Assembly (NCBI GenBank): GCA_045588325.1
Contig: JAZNEA010000057.1
Location: 1,089-65,088 of the forward strand
DNA: 64,000 bases
Direction: 5' to 3'
Source of the DNA: Clostridia bacterium
GTDB taxonomy: Bacteria > Bacillota > Clostridia > RGIG7378
Of this stretch, positions 21,738 through 40,117 are shown one piece after another. Numbering within the stretch: position 1 is the first letter of the stretch; each line of letters opens with the position of its first letter. The position numbers were made by a program, and so were the translations under genes. The notes beneath the pieces are model-generated. The model saw only the letters and a program-made list of their open reading frames with translations, searched no databases and was not told the DNA's origin.

Positions 21738-21826
21738 TGTGACTTGAAAAAAAGCCCTATATGGTATATTATTAATCGGTTAAATTAGCATTTTTGGGTC
21801 CAGTACCCAGATTCGGAGGAAATATA

Positions 21827-23523: not shown

Positions 23524-23545
23524 TATATAAATGGAGGACACTAAT

Positions 23546-26173
23546 ATGGCAAACAAGTATTGTTACCTCTTTACAGAGGGCGACGCCAGCATGAGAGAGC
23601 TGCTGGGCGGCAAGGGTGCTAACCTGGCCGAGATGACCAAGATTGGTCTCCCTGTACCTCAGGGATTCACAATCTCCACAGAGGCATGTACTCAGTATTA
23701 CGAGGATGGCCGTCAGATCAACCCCGCAATTCAGGCAGAGATCAATGACTACATCGGCAAGATGGAGGAGATTACAGGCAAGAAGTTCGGAGACCTGGAG
23801 AATCCTCTGCTGGTTTCTGTACGTTCCGGTGCTCGCGCATCCATGCCTGGTATGATGGATACAATTTTGAACCTGGGTCTTAATGAGCAGGTTGTAGAGG
23901 TTATGGCCAGAAAGTCTGGCAATGCTCGTTGGGCATATGACTGCTACAGAAGATTCATCCAGATGTATTCCGACGTTGTTATGGAGGTGGGCAAAAAGTA
24001 TTTCGAGGAGCTCACCGACAAGATGAAGGAAGAGAAGGGCGTTAAGCTGGACGTTGAACTTACAGCAGACGACCTTAAGGAACTGGCAAACCAGTTCAAG
24101 GCAGAGTACAAGGCCAAGATCGGACAGGACTTCCCTTCCGATCCCAGAGAGCAGCTCATGGGTGCTGTTAAGGCCGTATTCCGCAGCTGGGACAACCCCC
24201 GTGCTAACGTATACCGTCGTGACAACGATATCCCTTATTCTTGGGGTACAGCCGTTAACGTTCAGGCCATGGCATTTGGTAACATGGGCGATGACTGCGG
24301 TACTGGCGTAGCATTCACCAGAGATCCCGCCACAGGTGAGAAGAAGCTCATGGGCGAGTTCCTGACAAATGCTCAGGGTGAGGACGTTGTAGCTGGTGTT
24401 CGTACACCAATGCCCATCGCACAGATGGCAGACAAGTTCCCCAAGGCATTTGAGCAGTTCCAGAACGTATGTCAGATTTTGGAGAACCACTACCACGACA
24501 TGCAGGATATGGAGTTCACCATTGAGAATGAGAAGCTCTACATGCTGCAGACACGTAATGGTAAGAGAACAGCACAGGCAGCTCTCCAGATTGCAGTTGA
24601 CCTGGTAGCTGAGGGCCACAAGACCAAGGAGGAGGCAGTCCTCATGATCGACCCTCGTAACTTGGACACATTGCTCCACCCTCAGTTTGACGTAAAGGCT
24701 CTTAAGGCCTCTACTCCTATGGGCAAGGGCTTGGGAGCATCTCCCGGAGCCGCATGCGGACAGGTTGTATTCTCCGCAGAGGATGCAGAGGTTTGGAACA
24801 ACGCAGGCAAGAAGGTTATCCTCGTTCGTCTCGAGACATCTCCCGAGGATATTACAGGTATGAAGGCAGCTCAGGGTATCCTGACAGTTCGTGGTGGTAT
24901 GACATCCCACGCAGCTGTTGTTGCCCGCGGTATGGGTAAGTGCTGTGTTTCCGGTTGTGAGAAGATTGTCATGGACGAGGAGAACAAGCAGTTCTCTTTG
25001 GCAGGCAAGACATTCCACGAGGGAGACTACATCTCCATCGATGGTTCTACAGGTAACATCTACGATGGCGTTATCCCAACAGTAGATGCTGAGATCTCCG
25101 GCAACTTTGGCACTATCATGGGCTGGGCTGACGAGTTCCGCACACTTAAGGTCAGAACAAATGCAGATACACCTACAGATGCTAAGAAGGCTCGTGAGCT
25201 GGGCGCAGAGGGTATCGGTCTTTGCCGTACAGAGCACATGTTCTTTGAGGCAGAGAGAATTGCTGCTTTCCGTGAGATGATTTGCTCCGACACAGCAGAG
25301 GAGAGAGAGGTTGCTCTCGCTAAGATCCTGCCTTATCAGCAGTCCGACTTCGAGCCACTGTATGAGGCACTGGAGGGAACTCCTGTTTGCATCCGTTTCC
25401 TGGATCCACCACTCCACGAGTTCGTACCCACAGAGGACGCAGACATCGAGGCATTGGCTAAGGCTCAGGGCAAGGAAGTTGACGAGATTAGGGCAATTAT
25501 CACATCTCTCCATGAGTTCAACCCCATGATGGGACACCGTGGATGCCGTCTGGCAGTAACATATCCCGAGATTGCCAAGATGCAGACAGCTGCAGTTATC
25601 CGCGCAGCTATCAACGTACAGAAGAAGCATCCTGAGTGGAAGGTTCGTCCCGAGATTATGATTCCTCTGGTAGGCGACGTTAAGGAGCTCAAGTTTGTTA
25701 AGAACGTAGTTACAGCAACTGCAGATGCTGAGATTGCAGCAGCAGGCGTTGAGCTGGACTATGAGGTTGGTACAATGATCGAGATCCCCAGAGCATGTCT
25801 CACAGCTGATGAAATCGCAGCTAACGCAGACTTCTTCTGCTTTGGTACAAACGACCTTACTCAGATGACATACGGCTTCTCCCGTGACGATGCAGGTAAG
25901 TTCTTGAATGCCTACTACGATGGCAAGATCTTTGAGAACGATCCCTTTGCTAAGCTGGACCAGACAGGTGTTGGCAGGCTGATGAACATGGCAATTTCCT
26001 TGGGTAGACCAGTTAACCCCAACTTGCACGTAGGTATCTGCGGCGAGCACGGCGGTGATCCTACATCCGTTGAGTTCTGCCACCAGTTGGGTCTGGATTA
26101 CGTATCCTGCTCACCTTACAGAGTTCCGATTGCAAGACTTGCAGCAGCACAGGCTGCTATAAAGAGCAAGTAA
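23546..26173 (+). CDS. ppdK: Pyruvate, phosphate dikinase
   Basis: It is 876 aa, with the phospho-His domain (...GGMTSHAAVVARGMGKCCVSGC...) and a PEP-utilising TIM barrel (...NDLTQMTYGFSRDD...). Confidence 0.95.
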   Translation: MANKYCYLFTEGDASMRELLGGKGANLAEMTKIGLPVPQGFTISTEACTQYYEDGRQINPAIQAEINDYIGKMEEITGKKFGDLENPLLVSVRSGARASMPGMMDTILNLGLNEQVVEVMARKSGNARWAYDCYRRFIQMYSDVVMEVGKKYFEELTDKMKEEKGVKLDVELTADDLKELANQFKAEYKAKIGQDFPSDPREQLMGAVKAVFRSWDNPRANVYRRDNDIPYSWGTAVNVQAMAFGNMGDDCGTGVAFTRDPATGEKKLMGEFLTNAQGEDVVAGVRTPMPIAQMADKFPKAFEQFQNVCQILENHYHDMQDMEFTIENEKLYMLQTRNGKRTAQAALQIAVDLVAEGHKTKEEAVLMIDPRNLDTLLHPQFDVKALKASTPMGKGLGASPGAACGQVVFSAEDAEVWNNAGKKVILVRLETSPEDITGMKAAQGILTVRGGMTSHAAVVARGMGKCCVSGCEKIVMDEENKQFSLAGKTFHEGDYISIDGSTGNIYDGVIPTVDAEISGNFGTIMGWADEFRTLKVRTNADTPTDAKKARELGAEGIGLCRTEHMFFEAERIAAFREMICSDTAEEREVALAKILPYQQSDFEPLYEALEGTPVCIRFLDPPLHEFVPTEDADIEALAKAQGKEVDEIRAIITSLHEFNPMMGHRGCRLAVTYPEIAKMQTAAVIRAAINVQKKHPEWKVRPEIMIPLVGDVKELKFVKNVVTATADAEIAAAGVELDYEVGTMIEIPRACLTADEIAANADFFCFGTNDLTQMTYGFSRDDAGKFLNAYYDGKIFENDPFAKLDQTGVGRLMNMAISLGRPVNPNLHVGICGEHGGDPTSVEFCHQLGLDYVSCSPYRVPIARLAAAQAAIKSK

Positions 26174-26463
26174 TTGAGCCAACATGTTTTTTAGGAACAT
26201 TTGAGATCCCAAAGGATTTCATGAGGAAGAGCGGAAAGCTATATTATGGCGAACACCGTGCCTTCCGGTTCCCGGAAAAGCTTGAATTTAAGTTATTTCT
26301 AGTATAGGGAGTCTGTTAAAGACCCCCTATATTTTTTTATCAAAAATATAAGGTGCTATAAACGGATTAGTATATATGAATCTGTTGTTTGCATTTTTTT
26401 GAAGCGTTCGAGGTATTTTAACAAGAAAATTTCCCGAGCGCTTTTTTGCGTTTGGGGCAAAAG

Positions 26464-26479
26464 CGGAAACATGTTTCCG
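26464..26479 (+). promoter_or_regulatory. Perfect 16-bp palindrome CGGAAACATGTTTCCG just upstream of the XRE gene's RBS. It is a candidate operator.
   Basis: The palindrome is self-complementary and about 20 nt upstream of the TTG start. Confidence 0.4.
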
Positions 26480-26498
26480 GTTGAAGGAGGTTTAAAAA

Positions 26499-26834
26499 TT
26501 GTCGAGTTTTACAGCAAAAATGATAAAAGAGGCAAGGATTAATGCTAATCTGTCACAAGAAGAAGCAGCAAAAGCGTTAGGTATTACAGACCGAACTCTA
26601 AGGTCATTTGAAAACAATCAGCATCCGGTTTCGGTTGATGATTTATTGAATATGGCTAAGCTTTATAAAACGGACGTAAGGGAGTTCATCCTAGAAAACT
26701 ATGTTGAGGAAAAAGAAGAGCAGATTCTATGTAATCGGTATGGTTCTTTCCTAAAATTATATGATCAGCTATCGGATAGAGACAAGGAAGATGTAGTTTG
26801 GGTAATCAAGCAAAGAATCAATGGCACAATATAA
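26499..26834 (+). CDS. XRE-family helix-turn-helix transcriptional regulator
   Basis: The HTH_3 motif is ...LSQEEAAKALGITDRTLRSFENNQHPVSVDDLLNMAKLY.... It has a TTG start with an AAGGAGG RBS. Confidence 0.7.
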   Translation: MSSFTAKMIKEARINANLSQEEAAKALGITDRTLRSFENNQHPVSVDDLLNMAKLYKTDVREFILENYVEEKEEQILCNRYGSFLKLYDQLSDRDKEDVVWVIKQRINGTI

Positions 26835-26870
26835 ATATATGCTAATAGCATATACCAAAATGTGATAGAA

Positions 26871-26897
26871 TAAGCATATGCATTACGCATATGCTTA
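26871..26897 (+). terminator. Inverted repeat TAAGCATATGC-ATTAC-GCATATGCTTA followed by a T-rich tract. It is a terminator and/or operator between the XRE gene and the 421-aa gene.
   Basis: 11-bp perfect arms followed by TTTGTT. Confidence 0.45.
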
Positions 26898-26924
26898 TTT
26901 GTTATATACGAGATTATATGTTGA

Positions 26925-28190
26925 GTGTATGCTTATATCAAGCAAGTGATATGGAGGTGTCTTTCGATGTATAGAACAGAGGAAAGCAGCAAAATAGGTG
27001 AATATATTGGAAAGTTGATTGCTAGAAAGTATGGTAAGGATCGTCAGTTTGCAATTGAATATATAAAGTTAAGAGATGGGATAGATGAAGAGCCGGCCCT
27101 AGACGAAATTCAACGTGTAGCAAACAAAATATGTCAGATGAAAAAGATCGGAAAGGGAATACAGATTAATGATTTGCCAATTCTCTCAGAGTTATTGGAA
27201 GTTTCTGTTGATAGTATTCTCAGTGCTGGAAAGGTAGCCAAGCCAGCTCCTACCAGGACGACAAATTATTCTGTAGCTTTTTCCAAAGATAAAAAGATTT
27301 GGAAGGAATATATTGAGAGACCGGATAAACTAATTCTAAATGAGGACGAGTACGGAAAGACAGTTATTGATTATGCGATTGAGTTCGGAAATTATGGTTT
27401 ACTGAAATATTTGATTGATAACGATTATATTTATTTGATTGATGAGGATCAGCAAAAATATTGGGGAACATTTGGTTCAGGTACAACCATAGAAAGAAGA
27501 CCGCCTTTTGAATACGATTTGCTTGAATATAAGATGAAACAGAATGATAGCCTGAGAACAAGTATTATAGCTTTGGCCTTAGAGAATAAAGATTATGGGA
27601 TTCTTGATGAAGCAAAGGCGAGAGAAATACCTTCCCTATATGAAGCATCTTATTTCTATGGCACAGCTCTGGATGTTAAGAAGTATTACAATCAGCAGTT
27701 TATGGATCAGGTTGCCAGGGCATCGGATGAGGTGTTGGTCTACTTCTCATCAGAATTTGAGATAGAAACTAATAGGAAAGCTTTATGCAGATTGACTTTC
27801 CCTTATTTAGGAAAGCTGATTGATATGGCAATTAAGGCCAATAGAAAAGCTACAGCAACTATGTTAAAGAATGCTTCGAAGCATAACCAAGATGTGTTAA
27901 AGGAACTGAAAAAGATTGGCAAAGCTGCTGAAGATTCATTTTCTAGTATTCGACAGTATATGGATGAAAAATCTCTTATGGAAGGAATAATGCAGGATTA
28001 TCATTTTTACGAAGAGAATGATACAGTGTGCTTTCATTCGGGGATAAATTCAGCCGGGAACTTCCAGGGATTATTCTCGACTGTTGTACGAGTAAGTGTT
28101 TCATCTAAGGATGAATATATTAAATCTTTGATTGATGATGTTAATCGTTCATATAATCAGGTTAAGGATTTTGTTTACAAGGAGGTTTGA
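26925..28190 (+). CDS. Hypothetical protein with a split XRE-like HTH at the N-terminus and a ~330-aa helical C-terminal domain, reminiscent of RNPP/Rgg-type peptide-sensing regulators
   Basis: The N-terminus has ...IGEYIGKLIARKYGKDRQFAIEY...KIGKGIQINDLPILSELLEVSVDSIL, an HTH_XRE-like pattern, and the remainder is alpha-helical. The true start may be the ATG at about 26967 (MYRTEE...). Confidence 0.5.
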   Translation: MYAYIKQVIWRCLSMYRTEESSKIGEYIGKLIARKYGKDRQFAIEYIKLRDGIDEEPALDEIQRVANKICQMKKIGKGIQINDLPILSELLEVSVDSILSAGKVAKPAPTRTTNYSVAFSKDKKIWKEYIERPDKLILNEDEYGKTVIDYAIEFGNYGLLKYLIDNDYIYLIDEDQQKYWGTFGSGTTIERRPPFEYDLLEYKMKQNDSLRTSIIALALENKDYGILDEAKAREIPSLYEASYFYGTALDVKKYYNQQFMDQVARASDEVLVYFSSEFEIETNRKALCRLTFPYLGKLIDMAIKANRKATATMLKNASKHNQDVLKELKKIGKAAEDSFSSIRQYMDEKSLMEGIMQDYHFYEENDTVCFHSGINSAGNFQGLFSTVVRVSVSSKDEYIKSLIDDVNRSYNQVKDFVYKEV

Positions 28191-28193
28191 TTT

Positions 28194-28367
28194 ATGTGTA
28201 AGAGCTTTATGGATATGGAAGACGGAGATTTTTGTTTTACTACATCTGACAATATGGCAATGGACTCTGAGGGGCATATGATGATGCGTATGGGTGATAA
28301 CATGGCTATGGATATGGACTCGGGTGAATTACATATGGTTTCTTCATGGGATGACGATGATGAATAG
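28194..28367 (+). CDS. Small Met/Asp-rich acidic peptide (57 aa) not present in the ORF track: MCKSFMDMEDGDFCFTTSDNMAMDSEGHMMMRMGDNMAMDMDSGELHMVSSWDDDDE
   Basis: An ATG sits 3 nt after the upstream stop. There is an unusual run of MxM/MMM motifs, and no signal peptide. Confidence 0.3.
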   Translation: MCKSFMDMEDGDFCFTTSDNMAMDSEGHMMMRMGDNMAMDMDSGELHMVSSWDDDDE

Positions 28368-28388
28368 GTGATTTCTTTTGAATTTTCG

Positions 28389-28444
28389 TTGACGCATACG
28401 GAATCCGTGTACATAATAAAGGTAGGTATATACGAAATCCGTAT
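28389..28444 (+). promoter_or_regulatory. Promoter (TTGACG, 17 nt, CATAAT) with two near-palindromic operator-like sites, TACGGAATCCGTGTA in the spacer and TACGAAATCCGTATA at about +15
   Basis: Two copies of a TACGNAATCCGTRTA dyad spaced about 33 bp apart, immediately upstream of the HTH gene at 28459. Confidence 0.5.
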
Positions 28445-28458
28445 ACAGGAGGTGCAAG

Positions 28459-28731
28459 ATGAAAGACTTAGAGTATATCGTAAACGGAATCATTGTTGAA
28501 GATGAGAATAAGGCAGAGCAAGATGAAGCCAGAAAGAAAAGAATGCTTGCATCTGCTTTTGTAATGGTAAGAAACAAGACCGGTATGAATCGCAAAGAGT
28601 TTGCTGCATGGCTAGGAATACCTTATCGAACAATGCAGGATTGGGAACTCGGCAACTCACAGGTCCCTGAATATGTTCTTAGACTCGTTGCCTATAAGGT
28701 AATGATTGAAAAGGAAAGGGGGAACATATAA
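28459..28731 (+). CDS. Small helix-turn-helix DNA-binding protein (90 aa)
   Basis: ...MNRKEFAAWLGIPYRTMQDWELGNSQ... is an HTH of the XRE/Cro type. It is translationally coupled (ATGA) to the downstream membrane protein. Confidence 0.6.
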   Translation: MKDLEYIVNGIIVEDENKAEQDEARKKRMLASAFVMVRNKTGMNRKEFAAWLGIPYRTMQDWELGNSQVPEYVLRLVAYKVMIEKERGNI

Positions 28732-29036
28732 TGAGAATACTAAAAGCGATTTTGATGGCACCAGTTAGAGTGATCGTATTTTTTATCCAGCTTGTATTAA
28801 CGTTGGGTGTAGCTATATTTGGCGCAGCCGGTGGCATTGTTACAAAGGCTGGAGAAATAGTAGGAGGCCTTTTGATTTTAGGATGCCTTCTTTGTGTTGC
28901 ATCCGGACAGATTTCTGGAGATATCTTTTTAAAGATGTTCCTTGGTGGAGTTGCATTCGGAGCAATCCCTGCTGCTGTTACAAAGCTTGGTGAAGAGGGA
29001 ATTTTTGCTATTAAAGGTATCATAGGAAGAATTTAG
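28731..29036 (+). CDS. Small glycine-zipper membrane protein (101 aa, 3 predicted TM helices)
   Basis: It has hydrophobic GxxxG-rich segments (GVAIFGAAGGIV; GGLLILGCLLCVASG; GGVAFGAIPAAV). Confidence 0.5.
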   Translation: MRILKAILMAPVRVIVFFIQLVLTLGVAIFGAAGGIVTKAGEIVGGLLILGCLLCVASGQISGDIFLKMFLGGVAFGAIPAAVTKLGEEGIFAIKGIIGRI

Positions 29037-29046
29037 AAGAAAAGAG

Positions 29047-29079
29047 AATGCTTAGAGGCCAGTTCCATCAATTTGGAAT
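29047..29079 (+). terminator. Rho-independent terminator after the membrane-protein gene (GGCCAGTTCCA...TTGGAATTGGCC + TTTTT)
   Basis: A ~12-bp stem with one mismatch, followed by a T-run. Confidence 0.55.
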
Positions 29080-29162
29080 TGGCCTTTTTCAATATTGTAC
29101 TTTATTGAAAAAAGAGTTTGACAATCTCCTTCAATATTGTATAATGGTCTTGACCAATAATG
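29080..29162 (+). promoter_or_regulatory. Sigma-A promoter (TTGACA, 16 nt, TATAAT) embedded in three related operator-like sites. Two are CAATATTGTA half-palindromes and one is a perfect 18-bp palindrome CAATAATGTACATTATTG.
   Basis: Near-consensus -35 and -10 hexamers. The repeated dyad overlaps the -10 and the +1, as expected for an autorepressed RHH/HTH operator. Confidence 0.55.
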
Positions 29163-29188
29163 TACATTATTGAAGGAGATTGAAACAG

Positions 29189-29557
29189 ATGCATAATTTA
29201 GCATTACATTTAACTGATGTTCAATATGGCGAATTATTTGTAAAATCGCAAATTGAGGGATTATCCATAGACGCTTATATAAAAAAGACACTTTTCGAAA
29301 CCGATCCGGGAATATTCACTCCTAAAGAGGCTATCAGAAGAGCTATGGAAAAATATGACATAGGGGAATATTTTGAGCTTAGGGATCTATATTCAGATGA
29401 AGAATGGTCAAGTATGGAGCGCGGAGAAAGAATTGCTTTTGGACGAAACTTTTTTTCTTTTACCAGTGTCATTGAACCAGGAAAAGTAAAACTTGTTCAA
29501 GATACGGGAAATAATGGTAGAAGAGCAAAGTACGAATTATTAAAGAAGAAAATGTAG
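29189..29557 (+). CDS. Hypothetical protein with an N-terminal ribbon-helix-helix (CopG/Arc/ParD-like) DNA-binding domain and a ~70-aa C-terminal extension
   Basis: NLALHLTDVQYGELFVKSQIEGLSIDAYIKKTLF fits the RHH beta-alpha-alpha pattern. An AAGGAG RBS lies upstream. Confidence 0.45.
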   Translation: MHNLALHLTDVQYGELFVKSQIEGLSIDAYIKKTLFETDPGIFTPKEAIRRAMEKYDIGEYFELRDLYSDEEWSSMERGERIAFGRNFFSFTSVIEPGKVKLVQDTGNNGRRAKYELLKKKM

Positions 29558-29587
29558 AGAGGAGCCTTTGTTAGGAGGGGATGCTTC

Positions 29588-30025
29588 ATGACAACAAGAG
29601 AATTGAAAGAAAAGCTTAAAAACTCTCAGGAGACATATCCAGTATCAAGTGCATATGATGCAACTCATGGTCAAAGGAAAGGTGTTCATTGGAACAATCA
29701 AAAGGAACACCTTTTGCCGTGGCTTGATGCACAGGAGACTCATGGTTATGGTGGGTTTACTAGATTAAATATCAATACGGATGCCGAAAGAATGTACAAT
29801 CATCTGTCGTGTCCAGAATGTCTTTTATGGTTATGCGAAGCTTCTGGAGTGCCTTATGATGTTGTTAATGCGGCAGCTGAAAAAGCAAAGCTTCATGAAA
29901 AAGTAGTTTCCAGAGCAGCTTCAATTCGTAGAGATATACCGTGGAGTGAGGTAGAGAATAGGCTTAATATACCAATAGAGAGAACAAACACTTGCTTGGC
30001 TTTGCAAACACGTCACAATGTGTAA
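29588..30025 (+). CDS. Hypothetical protein (145 aa), with no recognisable domain
   Basis: The ORF has a GGAGGGGATGCTTCATG RBS context. It has island-type AT-rich codon usage. Confidence 0.45.
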   Translation: MTTRELKEKLKNSQETYPVSSAYDATHGQRKGVHWNNQKEHLLPWLDAQETHGYGGFTRLNINTDAERMYNHLSCPECLLWLCEASGVPYDVVNAAAEKAKLHEKVVSRAASIRRDIPWSEVENRLNIPIERTNTCLALQTRHNV

Positions 30026-30125
30026 TCGTATGTTTCTGGAAAAGCGGTAGCATTTCTTCCTTTTGCCCTATTTGGGAGTTTGATCGAGAAAAAAAGGTTG
30101 GGAAATCAGTTATAACGAACAACGC

Positions 30126-30518
30126 ATGAAGAAGAATCCAATTATTCAGAACCTCCATTTTTCGGACAAAACAGACGAATTTAAGGAAATACTTTTGGAT
30201 ATAGGAAAGTTTGCAACAGCAATAGAACAGCCCTATTTTGCAGATGTTTTTCGTAATGCATACGAGTCTTTGTGCGGTTCAGAAACTATCGAAGACGACA
30301 ATATTCCCAAACAACTCCCCAACGAGTTCAAATCTATATATTATGCGGTAGATAAAGCCGATGTGTTTGGTGCTATGGGGTCTTGGAACGATTCGCCGCC
30401 TTATTATGCGCACCAAAAAGGATTGGATAAGGAATATAATGAGTTATCAAACGGTCTGCTTGTTCAAATACGCTATCATTTGATGTATGTTACCAATGAG
30501 TGTTGGAAAAGAGATTGA
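30126..30518 (+). CDS. Hypothetical protein (130 aa), possibly an orphan immunity-type protein
   Basis: A small soluble protein in an array of unrelated small ORFs next to an RHS-CT cassette. Confidence 0.4.
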   Translation: MKKNPIIQNLHFSDKTDEFKEILLDIGKFATAIEQPYFADVFRNAYESLCGSETIEDDNIPKQLPNEFKSIYYAVDKADVFGAMGSWNDSPPYYAHQKGLDKEYNELSNGLLVQIRYHLMYVTNECWKRD

Positions 30519-30705
30519 GTACCATCTCCATCTTTGCGTGCAACAACTATTAAGAGCAAATAATAGGACAAGCTTAATAGACAAATTAAATCTCCCTACT
30601 GAGAAAGCGGTGGGGAGATTTTGCTTTTGTTGAATTATCAGAGTTCTTATATTATGCTTATGGTGTAGAGCAGATAAAGGTGTGTTCCTGAGTTGGAGTA
30701 GATAT

Positions 30706-31191
30706 ATGATCGTTTCATTTGATTTGGATGATACCCTTTTTGTTTCACCAGACAGGGCAAAAACAGAAAAAGAGTTAGTCTTTCCTTTGAATAAGATCTA
30801 TAAGGAGAGAATGAGACAGGGGACAAGAGACCTGTTCCAGCAGCTACATGCAAGAAACATTGACACATGGATATATACGACGTCCTTTCGAACAGAAAAG
30901 TATATTCGGAGATTGTTTAAGCACTATGGCATAAAAATCACGAATGTTGTTAATGGGGAAAAACATTTAAAAGAGGTCCAGGGAATCAAAAAGGATCCCA
31001 TGCCGTCGAAATATCCTTCGAGATATCGTATTGATTTGCATATAGATGACGATATTTCCGTCGCACAAAATGGCAAATTGTATGGCTTTAAGGTGCTAAT
31101 TATTAAGGAAGAAGATGATGAATGGGCATCTAGTATTCTGGCAACCGTGGACGGAATGTTGCAACGAACCAAGCAAGGAAAATCGGAATAG
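30706..31191 (+). CDS. HAD-superfamily hydrolase-like protein
   Basis: The N-terminal motif I is SFDLDDTLF (DxDxT), with downstream ...IDDDISV... (motif IV-like). Confidence 0.55.
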   Translation: MIVSFDLDDTLFVSPDRAKTEKELVFPLNKIYKERMRQGTRDLFQQLHARNIDTWIYTTSFRTEKYIRRLFKHYGIKITNVVNGEKHLKEVQGIKKDPMPSKYPSRYRIDLHIDDDISVAQNGKLYGFKVLIIKEEDDEWASSILATVDGMLQRTKQGKSE

Positions 31192-31251
31192 CTAAGTATA
31201 TTGTTATCTTTTTGTAAAATGATATATTTTTTATGTAAGGAGGATTGTTTT

Positions 31252-31911
31252 ATGAAAAAGTTATTATGTTTGTTTTTGGCAATTGTTATGCTGTTGGGCC
31301 TTTGCGGCTGCTTTGATGGTGGCACAGATGATATTCGTGGCGAGATTAACGCCGAGCCTACCCCTAACGAGCCGGAGTTCTCACTTGGCGCCACGTCTGG
31401 CAACTCTTATACCAATGATTTCCTGGGACTAAGTTGTGTTCTGCCTGCGGGATGGGTTTTTTATACTGACGAGCAGATTATGGAACTCAATAACATAGCA
31501 AAGGATATGATTGACGACGAACAGGTTTCCGACCTCCTCAAAAATGCAACCATTGTTTATGATATGACCGCTTCTCATCCAGATGGTAGTTCTATAAACA
31601 TAAATATGGAAAAGCTTAACGCTGTTCAGCAGCTGACCCTCAATTTGAAAAGTATGCTGGAGGGACAGATTAGCACGATTGTCTCTACTTATCAGAACAT
31701 GGGATTTACCGATGTCAATGTGGAATACCAAAAGATAATGGTCGATGGCAAGGAGTTTGATGGATTAAAACTTACTGCAAAGATTCAGGGTATTGCATAT
31801 TACGGAGAGCTCCTTGCATTTAAGAGGGGTAGCTATGTTGCGAATGTTTCAATTGGATCTATTCAGACAGACAAGAGTGAGATTATTTGGAGTTGCTTTG
31901 AGGTTGAATAG
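31252..31911 (+). CDS. Lipoprotein of unknown function
   Basis: The signal peptide has a lipobox (MKKLLCLFLAIVMLLGLCGC). An AAGGAGG RBS lies upstream. Confidence 0.6.
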   Translation: MKKLLCLFLAIVMLLGLCGCFDGGTDDIRGEINAEPTPNEPEFSLGATSGNSYTNDFLGLSCVLPAGWVFYTDEQIMELNNIAKDMIDDEQVSDLLKNATIVYDMTASHPDGSSININMEKLNAVQQLTLNLKSMLEGQISTIVSTYQNMGFTDVNVEYQKIMVDGKEFDGLKLTAKIQGIAYYGELLAFKRGSYVANVSIGSIQTDKSEIIWSCFEVE

Positions 31912-32052
31912 AGTGCCATGGCAAAATTAGGACGTATTCTTAAAGGATCTTCTAATTCATGACGTTTTCCAGGCCCCGCTCTTTGGTTTGCACAAATCAA
32001 AGAGCGGGGTCAAATATATGGAGGAAAATATGAAAATATATTCTATTAAGAA

Positions 32053-32110
32053 ATGGACTGCGCGCAATAATGTAACACCCTCTGTGCTACCATATGCATA
32101 GAGTAGGAAC
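32053..32110 (+). repeat. Direct repeat copy 1 (~57 nt, imperfect): ...TGGACTGCGCGCAATAATGTAACACCCTCTGTGCTACCATATGCATAGAGTAGGAAC
   Basis: It matches 34083-34141 (core 35 nt, 31/35 identical, plus an upstream arm resembling the 3' end of the immunity-like gene). Confidence 0.65.
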
Positions 32111-32387
32111 TATTGGATCCGTGGTATAAACGCACTATAGTTAACCAGGCCAGGTCAGGGTTAAAATTCCTGCCCTGGCCTTTGTTTTCTAATTAGGATT
32201 CTAGCTTTATAACTATAGCCGTATTAATTACGGATATACGTAATCCACCTCGTTTTCTTTTTGATTAGAAGGCGCCTTGCCTAAAATGGCACGAATTTGT
32301 TTCTCTAGGTAACGACGACCTTGTTGACGAATAGGAATAGATGTTCCTTTGGCTGTATTTCCGTTTGTTCCATCAGTAGCAGATTAA

Positions 32388-33380
32388 ACTGTATCCTATG
32401 GTTACACAGATAGCAGCTGGGCAGATTTGCTTACATCTTACAAGGGAAAAACCATAACCTATGATGCAATAGGCAATCCCCTAGACGATGGTACATGGGA
32501 CTATGTATGGGAGAGAGGCAGACAGCTTAAGTCCATGGAGGGAGCATCTGTAAAGTGGACATACACCTACGATGCAAATGGTCAGAGATTGACTAAGACC
32601 AACAATACTCTCACATATCACTATATCTATGATGGCATCCAGTTAAAGTATCTAAAGGTAACACAGAAATCCGGACAGAGTACAAACACGGTATGTGAGA
32701 TGTACTTTGAGTATGGACAGACAGGTCTCATGGCCATACAATATATTAGTAGCAGCTTGACAGACACATACTATGTAGTAACCAATGCTCAGGGAGACGT
32801 TGTAGCCTTGGTGGATGGTAATGGCACGGTGGTTGTAAACTACACCTATGACGCATGGGGTAAGCTACAGGCCATGACAGGCTCTAAAGCCAGCACCGTA
32901 GGCAAGTATAACCCCATCCGATATAGGGGATATGTCTACGACACAGAGACACAGCTGTACTACCTGAACACAAGGTACTATAACCCAGACATGGGTAGGT
33001 TCATTAATGCGGATTCCTTACTTAGCCGAGGATCTGTTCTTGGAAGCAATATGTTTGCCTATTGTCTTAACAATCCGGCAAACATGGCAGATACCACAGG
33101 TGAACTTCCATTTTTCCTTGTGACTGCTGCTATAGGTGCAGTTATTGGCGCTATCATTGGTGGTGTAGTTGCTGCAAAGAGTGGCGGAAATGTTTGGGCT
33201 GGCATAGGGATTGGCGCTGCTGCCGGAGGACTAGCAGGAGCGGGTTTGGGCGCAGCGGCTGGAGTGTTGTTGGCTGGCAGTGCTACGGCTAGCACAGCAG
33301 CAGTAGTGTCTGGTGCAGGAATGGTTGCAATGGCAGCAAGTACTGGTGGTGTGGTCGCAAGCTTCTGCTGCATTTTGTAA
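32388..33380 (+). pseudogene. Orphan, 5'-truncated RHS/YD-repeat protein C-terminal fragment with a glycine-zipper hydrophobic toxin tip
   Basis: YD repeats are visible (YDANGQRLTK, YDAWGKL, YRGYVYDTETQLYYLNTRYYNPDMGRFINADSL). The RHS core-end motif is ...NPANMADTTGE. A 95-aa Gly/Ala-rich hydrophobic C-terminal tip follows. The only in-frame stop is 3 nt upstream of the start, there is no ATG or RBS, and no RHS N-terminal part anywhere upstream. Confidence 0.7.
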
Positions 33381-33515
33381 TCAAGCAAGTGGTGTAGTAA
33401 ATGCATTTATTTCAAACAGTCTCTATCGTGGAGTAGATAGTGTCTTTTGGAAGGTCGAAATGACTGCGCTCTTAAACAACCCTAGAGTTACAGAAATAAT
33501 CATTCATATTTTCGA

Positions 33516-34106
33516 ATGAGTTTGGAGGAATGTGTGAAACGTTATTTTTATATCACAATTCACTTCTCTCCTGATTATGAAGGGACAGTGTTTTCAAAAT
33601 ACCATGATGATCTTTATATAAATACCGAAACAGGAGAGATATATCGCAAAAGATTGTTGTATGATTTTGGTTGGGGGCAAGAGAATGGATTTGAATTAAC
33701 ACCGCAGTTGTCATTCGAGGAGTTGATTCAATTGGTTGAGAGTCCAATGGTATTACCTCGAAAGAAGTTTTGGAAAAAATACACCAAAGAGGAAATTCAA
33801 CAAGCTGATATTTGGCGTAGCAACTTATATGGTGCAGTTGCGGTGATAATGCAAGATTATGTAAAAGATCTTATTGAGTTCCTATCGGCCAGGGTTGAGA
33901 CAGATTACTTTTCAAATCCAAGTATACGAGATAATTTCAAATGTTTCTCTTTTGACTCGGAAAAAACAAGAGCGGAGGGTAAGATTCCAGGTGGAGTTCT
34001 TACACAATCATATGAAGACATTTTTAAGAAATACCCTCAATGGGAAAGAATTTCTTCGAAGATTATTAACCAAGTATACGTACTGGACTGCGGCGAAAAT
34101 AAGTAG
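33516..34106 (+). CDS. Putative cognate immunity protein of the RHS C-terminal toxin (196 aa, unknown family)
   Basis: It lies immediately downstream of the toxin tip on the same strand and is a soluble protein. This position is conserved for polymorphic-toxin immunity genes. Confidence 0.45.
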   Translation: MSLEECVKRYFYITIHFSPDYEGTVFSKYHDDLYINTETGEIYRKRLLYDFGWGQENGFELTPQLSFEELIQLVESPMVLPRKKFWKKYTKEEIQQADIWRSNLYGAVAVIMQDYVKDLIEFLSARVETDYFSNPSIRDNFKCFSFDSEKTRAEGKIPGGVLTQSYEDIFKKYPQWERISSKIINQVYVLDCGENK

Positions 34107-34141
34107 CACCCTCTGTGATACCATATGGGTAGAGTAGGAGC
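34083..34141 (+). repeat. Direct repeat copy 2, covering the last ~24 nt of the immunity-like gene plus 35 nt downstream
   Basis: See copy 1. Confidence 0.65.
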
Positions 34142-34524
34142 GGGCAAGGCAAACAATAATAGTAAATACGTGATATGTAGTTGGCTAGGAGCATACCGAA
34201 GAAAACAGTGTGGCACAAAGAAAGAAGAAAGCATGGCGCGTTCCAATACATAGAGCTATTCTATAAAAGGAAATGTTCCCAACATGTAGGGTATAGGCAT
34301 TTATCGAACAAATATCTAAAGTTTAACCTGAGGTATGGTAGTTGCAAATATGTCTATGTAGGTTGTTATTCGAGTCATCAAATTAATATTATAAAATCTA
34401 CGCTAAATAAGGATTAGGTTGTAGGTAATGCTGGACAAAAGCAAAATATGGATGTTTTGGTTTAGTAGTTACTAATGTATCTTTTTTGATAGTGTCGTTT
34501 GGGAAGCAGCACAGGAGACTAACA

Positions 34525-34980
34525 ATGGAATATATAATAATTTTATTTATCCAAATTTTGATCATGTCTTTAATCCTTTTCGGCAGGAAAGATAATGCGC
34601 GTTTGATAAAAAAACTAGATAGTACTTTTTTAATAGTCATGTGGATTTTTCAGGGATTATGTATTATAGGTAATGTCGTTTTATTGTTTGTTGCTAAAGA
34701 TATGATGATGTATGTTCTTGAATTCCATGTTTTTATAGCAGGTATCATACTGATGATATTTGATCCTATTGGAAAAAGACTACACTTTCAAAGGTTAACG
34801 AATATTTTAATAGAAGATAATCTGATTTCATTAGATACGGGATCTATTAGACGATATATAGTAGAAAAATACGGCTTGATATATTCTACAAAAGAGATTG
34901 ATAAATACATAACTAAAATTATAGAGAATCAAAAGAAAATAGATCTAAAACATCAGAAAAAGGGAAAAAACGATAGATAA
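34525..34980 (+). CDS. Small polytopic membrane protein (about 150 aa)
   Basis: It has four hydrophobic helices (IIILFIQILIMSLILF; FLIVMWIFQGLCIIGNVVLLFV; FHVFIAGIILMIF). Start taken at MEYIII.... Confidence 0.4.
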   Translation: MEYIIILFIQILIMSLILFGRKDNARLIKKLDSTFLIVMWIFQGLCIIGNVVLLFVAKDMMMYVLEFHVFIAGIILMIFDPIGKRLHFQRLTNILIEDNLISLDTGSIRRYIVEKYGLIYSTKEIDKYITKIIENQKKIDLKHQKKGKNDR

Positions 34981-35099
34981 TTAATTCGCTAGTATTATTC
35001 AGCATTTGCGATTTCCCAGCGGGCATATTGCTTCAGTTGCCTTATTTCTGCATTTTGATGTAAACTAAACCTACAAATACTTATTCGGAGACAAAATGT

Positions 35100-36083
35100 A
35101 TGTTAGTTGTTTTAGTTGGCGGCACGTTAAAGGTGGCTAAGGACAGCCGCAAGTATTTTCAAGATAATGGGTTCCAGATAATCCAGAAGTACAACTATTG
35201 GCCCCAGGATACCATAACCGAGCATTATGATAAGTTTGAAACATGCACAGAAGAGGAGATCAACCTGTGTGAGTTCCAGTACCCTGTCCACAACGGAATA
35301 ACAGGATTCCGAAAGGCGCAGATTATTGACGCTGTCAGAGGTAGGACCAATGCCCTCATGACAGGGTCTCCGGACAATCTCGACTTTTTTAGACAGTTAA
35401 AGGCAGCTTTCAACAAGAATATCAGGTTGGTTTACCTGTACATCGACAAGACAAGCCTTGAAAGCATGACTCGCAAATTCATCGAGAGTGAGGAGGATAT
35501 CCAGCGCAGACTCAAAAAGGGTGGCGAGCTCCGCAAGATGTATATTAGTGAAAAGGCTCTGTTTGACAGGATTGTTGTGTATGAAGAGGACGGCGAACTG
35601 GGCATGGAGGCCTTGCACGTACAATACGACAGCATAATAGAGGAGGCAAAGAAAAATAACAACATTGTGGATCTGCCATATACGGGCTCGGACGGTTACA
35701 TATTTGTAAGTTATTCCCACGCGGATGATAATGAAGTTATGTCTGTGTTATCTGAATTACAAAAAGAAGGCTATAGAATCTGGTATGACGAGGGAATATA
35801 CGGTGGAGCAAACTGGAAAATCATGCTTGGAGAGAGGCTAGAGGGATGCACCGACTTTTTATTATTCTCGTCAAAGAGCTCTACCAAATCGAGAAATGTG
35901 TTTGCAGAGGTTGGTATGGCCCTGGATTTGCCGGAGGCTCATCCCATAGTTATCCGATTGGACGATGCAACCTTCCCCTCTGGGTATGAAATGTACTTAA
36001 AGGAGTATCAGAACATTCTTGCTAGCAAGGATAATCTGATGGATAAGCTGAAAAAAGCTTTGTCACCGGAGACAAAGCAATAG
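35100..36083 (+). CDS. TIR_2-domain protein with a ~190-aa N-terminal domain of unknown function, a paralogue of the TIR domain at 20022
   Basis: The C-terminal GYIFVSYSHADDNEVMSVLSELQKEGYRIWYDEGIYGGANWKIMLGERLEGCTDFLLFSSKSSTKSRNVFAEVGMA aligns motif-for-motif with the 20022 TIR (YIFVSY[AS]H.D...RIWYD.GI..G..W). The N-terminal MLVVLVGGTLKVAKDSRK... is weakly kinase/P-loop-like but not a canonical Walker A. Confidence 0.75.
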   Translation: MLVVLVGGTLKVAKDSRKYFQDNGFQIIQKYNYWPQDTITEHYDKFETCTEEEINLCEFQYPVHNGITGFRKAQIIDAVRGRTNALMTGSPDNLDFFRQLKAAFNKNIRLVYLYIDKTSLESMTRKFIESEEDIQRRLKKGGELRKMYISEKALFDRIVVYEEDGELGMEALHVQYDSIIEEAKKNNNIVDLPYTGSDGYIFVSYSHADDNEVMSVLSELQKEGYRIWYDEGIYGGANWKIMLGERLEGCTDFLLFSSKSSTKSRNVFAEVGMALDLPEAHPIVIRLDDATFPSGYEMYLKEYQNILASKDNLMDKLKKALSPETKQ

Positions 36084-36109
36084 GGATTTAGCCAACGATA
36101 TACGATTAT

Positions 36110-36145
36110 ACAGGCAGGGCGCGCTTTGTGTCCCTGCCTATTTCT
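36110..36145. terminator. Bidirectional hairpin (AGGCAGGG...CCCTGCCT) between the convergent TIR and DedA genes
   Basis: An 8-bp GC-rich stem with T-rich flanks on both strands. Confidence 0.45.
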
Positions 36146-36872
36146 CTGTAGATTCACCCTTGGTCATTTTGCCATAAATAACGTACCCAATGAGGCTGAC
36201 GATGGCAATGCCAGCAAAGATGTATATGGCCACCATGAGCCTGGATTCGCCCAACTCGTTGCCTGCAATTGTGGAAGAGATGATCGAAGGAATGCGGGCA
36301 AAGGTCGTGAGCAGCAGGTACTGCCATATTTTCATGTCGGTGAGGCCAACCACGTAGGACAGCATGTCCTTGGGCGTGCCGGGGATCAGGAACAGCAAAA
36401 ATGTCAGGGAGTTGCGCTGAACAGGATTGTTCAGAATGGGCAGGGAGTTAAGGTCCGTGTCTGGGAAAAATGTGTAGAATAACTTTAGTCCAAACTTGCG
36501 GGTCAGCAGTATGGCAGTGACACTTCCCAGGATTGCACCGATAAGCACATAAATAGTGCCCCATAGACCACCAAATACGTATCCGGCTGCTACCTCCACA
36601 AGTTCGCCTGGGATAAACGCTACCACAACCTGCAGGGCAGTTACCAGGATCATAATCAGGACGCCCAGCCAGTAGTTCTGCTCAACCAAAGCGCGTATTG
36701 GCCCAGCATCCGTAAAATACTGGCGCATGAGAATTACGCCTAAAACTGTAGCACCCACAAATAGAGCAGAGATAATGCTAAGCACTGTGGCCGCTTTGAT
36801 TTTGGCCCCTCTGGAAACGCGGGGCGTGGTGGATCCATTATGCTCATGTGTCTGATAATCGTTATTGTCCAT
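36138..36872 (-). CDS. TVP38/TMEM64 (DedA/SNARE-associated) family membrane protein
   Basis: It is a polytopic membrane protein carrying the family motif ...FIPGELVEVAAGYVFG.... An RBS GGGAGGA lies upstream on the minus strand. Confidence 0.8.
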   Translation of the reverse strand: MDNNDYQTHEHNGSTTPRVSRGAKIKAATVLSIISALFVGATVLGVILMRQYFTDAGPIRALVEQNYWLGVLIMILVTALQVVVAFIPGELVEVAAGYVFGGLWGTIYVLIGAILGSVTAILLTRKFGLKLFYTFFPDTDLNSLPILNNPVQRNSLTFLLFLIPGTPKDMLSYVVGLTDMKIWQYLLLTTFARIPSIISSTIAGNELGESRLMVAIYIFAGIAIVSLIGYVIYGKMTKGESTEK

Positions 36873-37011: not shown

Positions 37012-38874
37012 ATGAATCTGCGACGCTACTTGGTATGTTTGATGCTGCTGGTTATAACCATCTCAGTAGTAACAGGCTGCAATATCAGGCTGGTGTTCAA
37101 TCAGACAGAGGATTTGCCGACTCATAGTCCTGTTCCATCTGCTAGTCCGTCGTCTACGCCTACATCTACACATACGACGACGCATTCCCCTACAAATAGC
37201 CCTAGTTTTACTCCCGTGGCAACAGCCACACCTACAGCCACACCAACGGCCACGCCCACGGTTACACCTACAGCCACGCCCACGGAGACACCTACAGCCA
37301 CACCTACGGCTACTCCAACTCCGACACCCACCCCAACCCCTAAGCCAACACCAACCCCTAAGCCTACGCCCACGCCCACTCCACCCAGTGAGCCAATGCC
37401 TGACTCCTGGTGGTACGTGATTACAACTACAGCCAAGCTGCGTGCTGACTCCAGATCCTCTGCTGAGGTGCTGGAGGTTATCGACAATGGCCAGCTGATT
37501 AAGGTAATCTCCCAGCGAAACGGATTCGTTAAGGTGAAGTATAACGGCCGGGAGGGATATGTGTTGAGATCCAGTATCCAGCCAGTGGAGAACAAGGAGG
37601 ATTGCCCTCTGCCTAAGCTATGGCAGGCCAACTGCAACGAATACATAACATTGCGCAAAACTCCAGGAGGCTACGGCATCGACACGATTCCGGTAGGAGG
37701 AGTGATGGAGCTTAAGGAATGGCACGGCATATACGCCAAGGTAAAGTACGGCAACCTGACAGGCTATGTGCTGACCAGCCATATCAAACCTGCAGGAGAC
37801 AAATATTTTAAGAATCTGCTTAAGATTGTAGAGATTACCAGCCAGTATTCCTACTCCCAGATGTTGGAGGATATACAGGCGTTACAGAAAAAATACCCAG
37901 GTCTGATTACTCTGGACTCAATAGGCACCAGCGAACAGGGCAGGGATATTCCCGTCATGCGCATTGGCAACCCGGATGCGGAGCGCCACATAATGATCCA
38001 CGGTTCAATCCATGCCAGAGAGCATATGACAACCTGGCTCCTGATGGCCATGGTGGAGTACCAGCTGTCCCATGATACGGACTTTCTGGCAGATGTCTGC
38101 ATCCACATTGTGCCAATGGTCAATCCCGATGGAGTTATGCTGTCACAGACGGCCTCCTTTGCCCAGGCCCAGCTCAAGATATACAATGACGACCTGCAGC
38201 ACAAGAATACCTGGTACGGTAAGGCCCAGTATGCCAGCAAGTGGAAGGCCAACGCATTAGGAGTAGACCTTAACCGCAATTTCCCTGCAGGGTGGGAGGA
38301 TATTCCATCCAGGGGATTGCCCTCATCAGAAAAATTCAACGGAACTGAGCCGTTGGACGCAGCGGAGTCTCGCGCTCTGGCTGAATATACGCTAAAATAC
38401 ACGTGGGTGGCCACCATTAGCTACCACTCCTACGGCAGTTTGATTTATCACAACTTTGGCGAGAGGCAGGACATCAATCGCCAGTCCACATCCCTGGCCG
38501 AGGCGGTCAAGGCTGTCACAGGATACCTGTTGTCGGATGGAGACGAGGTCGAGGGTGGAGGCTACAGAGATTGGGCCATCGACGCCCTTGGCATCCCATC
38601 CATAACCGTGGAGGTAGGGTGCGCAGAACCGCCCCTGTTGGACAGAGAGTTATATTGCCTGTTTGCCAGGAATTATGACGTAATGCGTGCAGTGGCAGAG
38701 TGGGCTATGGAACAGGAGGTTCCACCAGAGAGGACAGAGGGTGACCCAGGACAGGAGACTCCTCCGGAACCAACAGAGGATATAGGTCAGGAGGCACCCC
38801 CGGAGCAAACAGAGGGACCTGAGCAAACAGAAGGAACAGAAGGAACAGAAGGAACGAATGGAGACATTGAATAA
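37012..38874 (+). CDS. Lipoprotein zinc carboxypeptidase of the M14 family (gamma-D-Glu-DAP peptidase-like) with a Pro/Thr linker, two SH3b domains and an acidic C-terminal repeat
   Basis: It has a lipobox (VTGC), two SH3b-like repeats (...[12 protein letters not shown]...; ...[17 protein letters not shown]...), and the M14 zinc motif [11 protein letters not shown] with a downstream ...SYHSYGS... motif. Confidence 0.8.
37198..37392 (+). repeat. Pro/Thr-rich tandem codon repeat (ACNCCNACN) encoding a [22 protein letters not shown]...[18 protein letters not shown] linker
   Basis: Visible tandem repeat, near-identical in unit sequence to the tracts at 9889-10030 and 40200-40330. Confidence 0.8.
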
Positions 38875-40084
38875 GACATATCAATACATGTTCGCATTGC
38901 TGCGCAGCAGTATCTGGGGCACAGACAGATTCCCCATAGAGCCCGCCGAGGACATTGCTTGGGAGGAACTGTACCAGGAGTTGCGAAATCAGACGGTTAA
39001 TCGCCTGGTTGCAGATGTGCTCTGCCCTATGGACACCCCGGTGAGCCAGCAATGCCTTAAGGAGACATCTGTCGGCCTGCTCAGCTGGCACAAGCTCATG
39101 AACGTTCAGCAGCATCTTAAAGGTGTGCTGGACCAGGGGGGCATTCCATTTGTAGTGTTAAAGGGTGCTGCAGCCTGCATTAATTATCCCAAACCAACGT
39201 ACAGGAGCATGGGCGACATAGATGTTATGGTCCAGCCGGACAGATACCAGGAGGCCCTCGAGCTCCTGGCAGCCAACGGATATACTTTAGGCAAGAGAGA
39301 GGGCGACCGTCACAAGGAGTTATCCCGCAATGGCGTGGAGATTGAGCTGCATAGGTATTACTCCCTTTTCGCCCAAAAGGAGGCCTTTGAACTTTTGGAC
39401 GGCCTCATTATAGAGAACATTCCCAATGCCATTCAGGCGCAGATAGAGGGGTACGACTTCCCGATGCTGCCTCCCTGTGAGAACGGCCTGGTGTTCCTGG
39501 AGCATATTGATCACCATCTGCAAGGTGGCATAGGCCTGCGCCAGATAATCGACTGGATGATGTTTGTGGACAGACATGTTACCGATGCCATGTGGGAGCA
39601 CCAGCTAGGACCCAGGACTGAGGCAATAGGTCTGCATACCATGGCGGTTGTGGTCACGCACATGTGTCAGATGTACCTGGGCCTCAGGGATGACATCGAG
39701 TGGTGCAAGGGGGCAGATGAGGAATTGTGCCGCCAATTGATGGACATCATACTGGAGAGGGGCAACTTTGGTCGCAAGGACAGGAGCCACAATAATGTGT
39801 CTGTGGTTTTGCACTCTATGTCGGGAGTGACAAATACTTTCAGAATGTTACAATATAGGGGCAAGATTAATTGGCAGGCGTTGAGGCGCTACCCTTGGCT
39901 AAAGCCATTTGCATGGGTATACCAGATATGCAGATATATACGCAGAGGATTTATGCTGGACAGGCCGATTCGCAGTCTATTCAAGAGGGCCCATAGCACT
40001 GCCTCACAGAGAGAGGTGTTTGACAAGCTGGGGGCAACGCGACAGGGCGAGGGAGTACATACCCCCACTGGTAAGAGATACTGA
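38858..40084 (+). CDS. Nucleotidyltransferase-family protein (NTP_transf_5-like, uncharacterised)
   Basis: ...[48 protein letters not shown]... is the pattern of the 'putative nucleotidyltransferase' family. It overlaps the M14 gene end by about 17 nt. Confidence 0.55.
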
Positions 40085-40117
40085 GATCAGAGACAGAGCT
40101 GTTATTTAGGAGGATAC

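Follow-up and report, generated by a model that had tools for sequence, protein, structure and literature searches.

In a 64-kb stretch of DNA from a Clostridia bacterium (contig JAZNEA010000057.1; hereafter the window), the ppdK gene is separated from a gene for a DedA/VTT-domain membrane protein by an AT-rich interval, 26190-36100, whose genes and other features are listed in Table 1. Guanine-plus-cytosine (GC) content is 0.386 in this interval as compared to 0.494 in the rest of the window; in a 1-kb profile it ranges from 0.32 to 0.44 over positions 26001-36000 and lies around 0.50 on either side, and the lowest value for any other non-overlapping 9.9-kb stretch of the window is at least 0.472. 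Mean GC content at third codon positions (GC3) is 0.362 for the 12 open reading frames (ORFs) of the interval versus 0.566 (standard deviation 0.055) for the 42 other genes (Mann-Whitney p = 8e-7). With the flanking genes as training set, the codon-adaptation index of most genes of the interval lies at z = -2 to -4.4, the exceptions being the lipoprotein gene g9 (-1.0), a fragment of an RHS gene (-0.6) and the TIR gene g13 (-1.6); the indices of g9 and of the neighbouring HAD-like gene g8 are intermediate. Coding density is 0.75, against 0.95 elsewhere, and the median intergenic gap is 125 bp instead of 12.5 bp. An earlier note, made by eye, had reported the drop in GC content, the AT-rich codon usage, the long spacers and the location of every gene on the + strand, and the computed values bear it out on all four counts (the last for plausible genes). 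Its description of the spacers as full of palindromes was overstated: terminator-like sites (6 versus 5.6 expected) and promoter-like sites (31 versus 31.9 expected) are about as numerous as in shuffled sequence, so that the claim shrinks to three strong local hairpins, at 29122-29182, at 30588-30621 (after g7) and at 31974-32009 (after the lipoprotein gene).

Table 1. Genes and other features of the ppdK-DedA region, in window coordinates.
Feature	Position	Strand	Basis or remark
ppdK, core gene, left anchor	23531..26173	+	79-90% identity to the PpdK proteins of 80 genomes of Clostridia; GC3 0.565
Left junction and 325-bp spacer	26174..26498	.	Change point 26161
g1, XRE-type helix-turn-helix (HTH) regulator, 111 aa	26499..26834	+	Pfam HTH_3, E = 6.5e-13
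g2, 407 aa, N-terminal XRE HTH plus about 310 aa	26967..28190	+	Predicted model
s57, 57-aa acidic, Met-rich mini-protein, 3 bp after g2	28194..28367	+	Translation
g3, 90-aa HTH-like protein, weakly MqsA/Xre-like	28459..28731	+	NCBIfam matches below cut-off
g4, 101-aa hydrophobic small membrane protein	28731..29036	+	Start overlaps g3 stop
Perfect promoter (TTGACA-16-TATAAT) and 20-nt inverted repeat	29118..29182	+	Sequence scan
g5, DUF1413 protein	29189..29557	+	Pfam DUF1413, E = 9e-11; N-terminus ribbon-helix-helix-like by eye only
g6, 145 aa, last gene of the block common to L093	29588..30025	+	ORF
g7, 130 aa	30126..30518	+	Strong terminator-like hairpin follows at 30588-30621
g8, small HAD-like phosphatase	30706..31191	+	DxDxT, TTS and DDD motifs read from sequence
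g9, lipoprotein	31252..31911	+	Signal peptide with LCGC lipobox, from sequence
D1 direct repeat, copy 1	32062..32108	+	47 nt, 83% identical to copy 2
g10, RHS relic	32385..33380	+	TIGR03696, E = 1e-20; RHS_repeat, E = 4e-8
g11, 196-aa soluble protein, candidate orphan immunity protein	33516..34106	+	Small unannotated family, 84 clusters
D1 direct repeat, copy 2	34093..34139	+	Spans g11 stop codon
g12, 151-aa membrane protein	34525..34980	+	Most AT-rich gene, GC 0.28
g13, guanylate-kinase-like domain (residues 1-190) and TIR domain (196-327)	35100..36083	+	Pfam TIR_2, E = 7e-14
DedA/VTT-domain membrane protein, right anchor	36138..36872	-	Pfam VTT_dom, E = 5e-20

The borders of the anomaly were placed by a two-change-point maximum-likelihood fit of GC content, which put the change points at 26161 on the left and 35240 on the right. 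Both anchors named in the earlier note, the ppdK stop codon and the DedA ORF, lie where it had them; the right compositional boundary, however, falls at about 35.1-35.2 kb, and g13 lies outside it. In line with the note, which had seen none at the boundaries, the interval contains no tRNA, integrase or transposase, and an Rfam search was also empty, even at a permissive threshold. Neither border is marked in the window by a mobility gene, a tRNA or a flanking direct repeat, and no repeat, tRNA or attachment (att)-like feature is present in the left junction.

Comparison with relatives, whose contigs or loci (L-numbers) were reached via homologues of the TIR protein and of g2, shows that the DNA between the two anchors varies. 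In L083-L085 and L087 the TIR, DedA and M14 genes are arranged as in the window, with g13 homologues adjoining DedA. Upstream of the TIR gene, L083 carries a HAD gene 94% identical to g8, only a remnant of the lipoprotein gene, an unrelated gene of 184 aa and, as a second TIR gene, a paralogue (63% identity); the 184-aa gene and the tandem pair of paralogues (L083:1421-3445) are found throughout L083-L086. At the same position in L087 lie a serine recombinase gene and an IS605-type TnpB gene. On the other side, L090 has between ppdK and a TIR homologue (53%), in this order, genes for a protein of 149 aa, for an HTH protein and for a STAND-like DUF4062-AAA_16 protein of 1395 aa. The cargo at the site is thus partly of conflict type in these relatives: the STAND-like gene in L090, the recombinase and TnpB in L087 and the tandem TIR paralogues in L083-L086. 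The edges are sharp. Nucleotide homology between L090 and the window ends at 26176, three bases past the ppdK stop codon, and homology with L083 picks up again at 34987, 7 bp past the g12 stop codon. The upstream region of g13 resembles that of paralogue 1 of L083 and its gene body resembles paralogue 2, suggesting a recombinational deletion by which the window probably lost one of the two paralogues. A drop in GC content of more than 0.06 in the 5 kb following ppdK was found in 6 of 47 other Clostridia species. In three other Clostridia species (L049, L031 and L055) the drop in the 5 kb downstream of ppdK amounts to 0.12-0.15; the cargo in L049 consists of membrane proteins and a protein that by eye resembles an acyltransferase, not of defence genes.

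The genes nearest to ppdK belong to blocks with different distributions. The window sequence recurs in L093, which comes from another sample, at 97.7-98% nucleotide identity over 26652-29576 and 29572-29971, and beyond 29971 the two are unrelated; the L093 copies of g3 and g4 are 100% and 97% identical, respectively, and g5 is called there as a 122-aa gene. The match to L091 and L092 is limited to 26619-28521 (g1, g2 and s57) at 86% identity, and in these loci the trio lies beside genes for a type I HsdR subunit, a Bro-N/Fic protein and a 1574-aa SMEK_N protein. The first member of the trio, g1, matches PHROG repressor families and has a GC3 of 0.33 and a codon index z of -4.2. The predicted model of g2 (pLDDT, the model's own confidence score, 87.7) places an XRE HTH at the N-terminus, and the last 310 or so residues find nothing in PDB or BFVD beyond a weak ankyrin-like signal. 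A g2 homologue lies behind an NTP_transf_2/NTase_sub_bind gene pair in L094-L098; P0210 (36%; source name Roseburia lenta) is a homologue in this position. Gene calls in L091, L092 and L093 include the mini-protein s57; only 4 of 174 nt differ from the L091 copy (11225-11398), within a 1.9-kb aligned block, g2 included, that is 86% identical. A search of phage, plasmid and viral-contig collections with the left half of the interval (26190-31200) and with g2 returned a single match, that of s57 to one unverified phage record. This record, MT836178.1 (59.5% GC, deposited as an unverified bacteriophage), carries the s57 homologue (L099:287-466) behind a small ORF with an HNH-like motif, recognised by eye, and also encodes a TIR-like protein. 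The s57 protein itself contains a repeated DNMAMD motif. The idea that g2 and s57 form an RRNPP quorum-sensing pair was rejected: they do not show the combination of an HTH and an all-helical tetratricopeptide-repeat sensor domain with a secreted small peptide encoded alongside.

Within the block common to L093, g3 is matched by phrog_8898 (7e-11), g4 has no family match in Pfam, NCBIfam, PADLOC or PHROG searches, and g6 has no family or PDB match. The 20-nt inverted repeat upstream from g5 overlaps a sigma-70 consensus promoter and covers the ribosome-binding site of the gene, and the hairpin that it would form at the RNA level is strong (-32.5 kcal/mol, z = -6.9). It may represent either the operator of an autoregulated gene or an RNA hairpin hiding the g5 ribosome-binding site. 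The next gene, g7, lies outside the common block; its sole match is a sub-threshold one to DUF6966, and it has none in PDB.

To the right of g7, profile matches to g8 are weak (Pfam Hydrolase at E = 0.003, below the cut-off; PHROG polynucleotide kinase/phosphatase at 9e-5). A homologue of g9 (55%) is found directly upstream of a TIR homologue (51%) in L088 and L089. Such a lipoprotein-TIR pair looks ancestral, g9 being probably an old neighbour of the TIR gene, and the 3.3 kb that separate the two genes in the window (RHS fragment, g11 and g12) therefore look like an insertion. Past the lipoprotein gene and ahead of the RHS relic is the remnant of an ORF on the minus strand (32200-32380), ending ...RQQGRRYLEKQIRAILGKAPSNQKENEVDYVYP*, which has no match in the plasmid collection.

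The apparently inserted segment is where the inventory of the earlier note has to be corrected. The HTH genes, HAD-like gene, lipoprotein, RHS fragment and TIR gene that it listed are all present, and for its RHH gene there is the DUF1413 match of g5; what it took for an RHS toxin/immunity cassette is a toxin-less relic. The ORF encodes the end of the YD repeats, followed by the Rhs-associated core and a hydrophobic, Gly/Ala-rich stretch; of the shell, no more than about the final 225 residues remain, the N-terminal shell/delivery region being absent. Homology to P0214 (YGYTDSSWADLLTSYKGK) starts right after an in-frame stop codon at about 32385. At the other end, alignment with homologues of 480-551 aa (alignment A4), with which the window ORF has the Rhs core and the Gly/Ala-rich stretch in common, shows that it ends nine residues past its departure from them, still inside the Gly/Ala-rich region. 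The late start of homology and the early end of the ORF indicate that the RHS gene is cut at both ends. The ORF has no C-terminal toxin domain, and the window contains no rhs gene of full length. The Gly/Ala-rich stretch follows the core in eight of the nine close homologues aligned, and six of these eight run 110-150 aa past it into differing C-terminal domains (for homologue P0233, precomputed Pfam gives PF15649). The stretch thus looks like a common pre-toxin module of short or orphan RHS genes. The possibility that this Gly-zipper tail is itself the toxin was rejected, since in the homologues the stretch is followed by toxin domains that differ from one another. Short RHS-core proteins number in the thousands in public metagenome and genome assemblies, the best 120 listed (P0214-P0332) being 200-550 aa long.

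The relic and g11 are bracketed by the two copies of the D1 repeat, whose 33-nt core occurs at these two sites in the window and at no other, with none expected. A role of the 47-nt repeat as a structured RNA was discarded on account of its fold z-scores (-1.3 and 0). Neither Pfam nor PDB yields a match to g11 (GC3 0.345), and g12 has no family match in Pfam, PADLOC, PHROG and further profile searches; both may be leftover immunity genes. The segment resembles orphan rhs-CT/immunity modules in having a 5'-truncated RHS core fragment, with its Rhs-associated core, followed by small genes, and in the direct repeat that brackets the unit. It departs from them in that the defining toxin domain is missing, the ORF ending at the Gly/Ala-rich stretch, and in that the full-length rhs gene is not found within 64 kb.

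The gene at the right edge, g13, stands apart from all these. Its GC3 (0.546) is host-like, and the protein identities of g13 to its homologues in L083 and L087 (91% and 85%) equal or exceed those of DedA (89% and 77%) and M14 (84% and 72%). Because of these two features g13, which lies outside the compositional boundary, is evidently a vertically inherited, long-term resident and not imported cargo, contrary to its assignment in the earlier note. The AlphaFold2 model (pLDDT 84) predicts a guanylate kinase fold followed by a TIR fold. Residue E270 is invariant in 45 family sequences and is matched in the TIR-domain chain 8qlo_A by the Glu of a VLKEI motif, a position that, from published work on TIR NADases, we take to be that of the catalytic Glu. 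The best PDB sequence matches are to TIR-APAZ, Cat1 and the NAD+ hydrolase AbTIR. In the kinase-like domain the P-loop is degenerate, with VGGTLKVAKDS in place of the Walker A motif GxxGxGK[ST]; the family consensus, GxTLExGKxS, is one residue longer, with a Lys that is not conserved. Kinase activity of g13 is therefore unlikely. A profile comparison with E. coli Gmk by hhalign gave a probability of 0.2% (with a manually entered Gmk sequence), and descent of the domain from gmk was rejected for want of sequence similarity and of a gmk gene in the window. The full guanylate-kinase-like/TIR architecture is found in about 80 protein clusters from gut Clostridia, two of which have source names (Ruminococcaceae or Oscillospiraceae); viral contigs contain TIR-only relatives and lack the full architecture. 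A literature search found no description of a fusion of this kind.

Taken together, these features suggest that g13 is most likely an NAD+-cleaving, ligand-gated NADase whose degenerate kinase-like domain probably binds the controlling ligand. With the prokaryotic TIR-domain NADases (ThsB, TIR-APAZ of SPARTA, TIR-SAVED, Cat1 and AbTIR) g13 shares the predicted TIR fold, with the Glu matched in 8qlo_A, and the two-domain logic of a sensor joined to a TIR domain. It differs from them in the nature of the partner domain, in the lack of a ThsA, Argonaute, SAVED or CRISPR partner gene, and in being syntenic and well conserved rather than patchy in distribution. A second parallel is found in the guanylate-kinase-like domains of MAGUK proteins, pseudo-kinases that serve as binding modules, in which the guanylate kinase fold is likewise without its Walker A motif and joined to a signalling domain; the protein studied here is, however, bacterial, and its sequence shows no detectable similarity to that of guanylate kinase. 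As to its role, the core-like conservation argues for a housekeeping-like function, whereas the tandem paralogues in relatives and the likeness to immune TIR NADases argue for immunity. That g13 is not an immune protein at all but a conserved nucleotide- or NAD-metabolising enzyme of the lineage, placed at the edge of the interval by chance, would fit its host-like GC3, its conservation and the absence of the full-length architecture from viral contigs. We nonetheless regard this as unlikely: the Pfam match is to TIR_2 and not to the deoxyribosyltransferase family, the best PDB matches by sequence are TIR-APAZ, Cat1 and AbTIR, the state of the P-loop speaks against a kinase, and tandem paralogues at 63% identity are a pattern typical of immune genes.

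The earlier note had interpreted the interval as a single island of about 10 kb devoted to defence and conflict, and had called for known defence systems to be searched for. PADLOC-DB v2 detects no complete known system in the interval: its matches are confined to the generic HTH of g1 and to weak TIR models (ThsB, Aga-TIR and SAVED-TIR, with ThsB models reaching only 1e-6 against g13), the other 11 proteins giving none. No two recognised systems are clustered here, by the same database, as they would be in a defence island. It is accordingly doubtful that the TIR gene and several of the others (among g1-g2-s57, g3-g4, g5-g7 and g11-g12) cluster here for function, as working systems against phages or competitors. 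Such a view can draw on the invariant candidate catalytic Glu of the TIR protein, on the company kept by g1-g2-s57 in L091 (type I restriction subunit, Fic and large SMEK_N proteins), on the STAND-like NTPase at the same site in L090 and on the NTP_transf_2/NTase_sub_bind pair preceding a g2 homologue in L094-L098. It is weakened by the lack of a partner for the TIR protein (no ThsA-like protein, as Thoeris would call for, is encoded in the interval), by the loss of the toxin from the RHS gene, the one recognisable conflict gene, and by the low coding density and gene remnants, which point to decay; the TIR gene, moreover, is at least as well conserved as the neighbouring core genes. Still less probable is the entry of the whole 10 kb as one prophage or integrative element that later lost its integrase and structural genes, for, in spite of the many XRE-type repressor-like regulators with phage-repressor PHROG matches, the co-orientation of the genes and the recombinase and TnpB at this position in L087, the blocks differ in distribution and codon index, PHROGs identify only regulators and the weak kinase match of g8 (no integrase, structural or transfer genes), there is no att repeat in the interval, the left half and g2 have no notable phage, plasmid or viral-contig homologue (s57 being found in the unverified phage record only), and the HAD and lipoprotein genes occur in relatives without the other blocks.

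We favour, with a probability of roughly 0.7, an interpretation in which the interval is an insertion and recombination hot spot between the 3' end of ppdK and the resident guanylate-kinase-like/TIR gene of an uncultured gut Clostridia bacterium, into which at least four modules of differing histories have come piece by piece. Under this interpretation, some 8.8 kb (26174 to about 34986) would have accumulated in steps. The regulator-rich block g1-g6 would have arrived by horizontal transfer, its g1-g2-s57 core (an XRE repressor, an HTH protein with a large domain and an acidic mini-protein) apparently travelling alone as well. The isolated small gene g7 would form a second contribution. The HAD-like phosphatase and lipoprotein genes, common to relatives, would represent an older pair, and the RHS fragment, having lost its delivery end and its toxin, would have come with g11 and g12 in the insertion between the lipoprotein and TIR genes. 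The data show the mosaic make-up of the interval, as they do its shift in composition, the truncation of the RHS gene and the predicted fold and the synteny of g13; for each block, horizontal transfer is the presumed source. What stands of the earlier reading is thus an accessory region, compositionally foreign, variable, devoid of mobility genes of its own and occupied by conflict-type cargo in some relatives; what falls is the single, working defence island. Several observations weigh against the hot-spot interpretation. Among the relatives recovered, none spans the distance from ppdK to DedA continuously, so that neither an empty site nor the exact junctions are seen: the best 80 matches in a genome scan with ppdK (79-90% identical), among which the source species is not represented, show no DedA or M14 synteny, and a metagenome scan with DedA gave two distant matches only. 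Linkage between ppdK and a TIR gene is found in two lineages only; the window itself has no mobility gene or target-site duplication; and, because the flanks of L093 are not known, its 97.7% match could reflect membership of the same species instead of transfer.

The locus has the usual marks of hot-spot genomic islands between core genes: low GC content, atypical codon usage, sharp edges at conserved genes, cargo that differs among relatives and is in part conflict-type, low coding density and gene remnants. It is unusual in that this copy has no integrase, tRNA, flanking repeats or complete known defence system, in that its content is mainly regulators and small proteins without family, and in that one of the boundary genes encodes a TIR protein.

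Other parts of the window provided some further observations. Just past M14, an NTP_transf_5 gene (38858-40084, + strand; GC3 0.64, host-like) is missing from L083, where 154 bp replace window positions 38715-40104, whilst L087 has a copy with 55% identity; this site is a second indel. Another TIR gene (20022-21422, + strand; 466 aa), encoding an N-terminal TIR_2 domain followed by BspA-type LRR_5/LRR_8 repeats, sits between a yicC-like gene (19102-19980) and rpoZ (21794-22117), a position taken in many Firmicutes by remA and gmk; the window as a whole yielded no gmk homologue. The lowest GC3 outside the interval (0.388) is that of a gene for a 706-aa BspA-type LRR_5 protein (11064-13184, + strand), which adjoins a 706-aa SH3-repeat NlpC/P60 gene.

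The hot spot is of a known type, and the TIR fusion is moderately novel. Current ideas are not overturned, and the value of the findings is moderate: as this example from uncultured gut Clostridia shows, what appears by eye to be an AT-rich defence island can be a layered hot spot holding mostly regulators, remnants and small genes, and its apparent flagship defence gene can be a resident anchor and not cargo. Speculatively, and at rather long odds, guanylate-kinase-like/TIR proteins might constitute an undescribed single-gene NAD+-consuming sensor, whose dead kinase domain would recognise a nucleotide or a phospho-ligand and thereby turn on the TIR domain, the gene being retained as the constant border of the cargo hot spot that follows ppdK; g1-g2-s57, for its part, could represent a regulator/anti-regulator pair or a defence module of a new kind. 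The objects of interest that emerge are the guanylate-kinase-like/TIR family, the g1-g2-s57 trio that recurs by restriction genes, and the Gly/Ala-rich pre-toxin stretch of short RHS proteins in gut Firmicutes.

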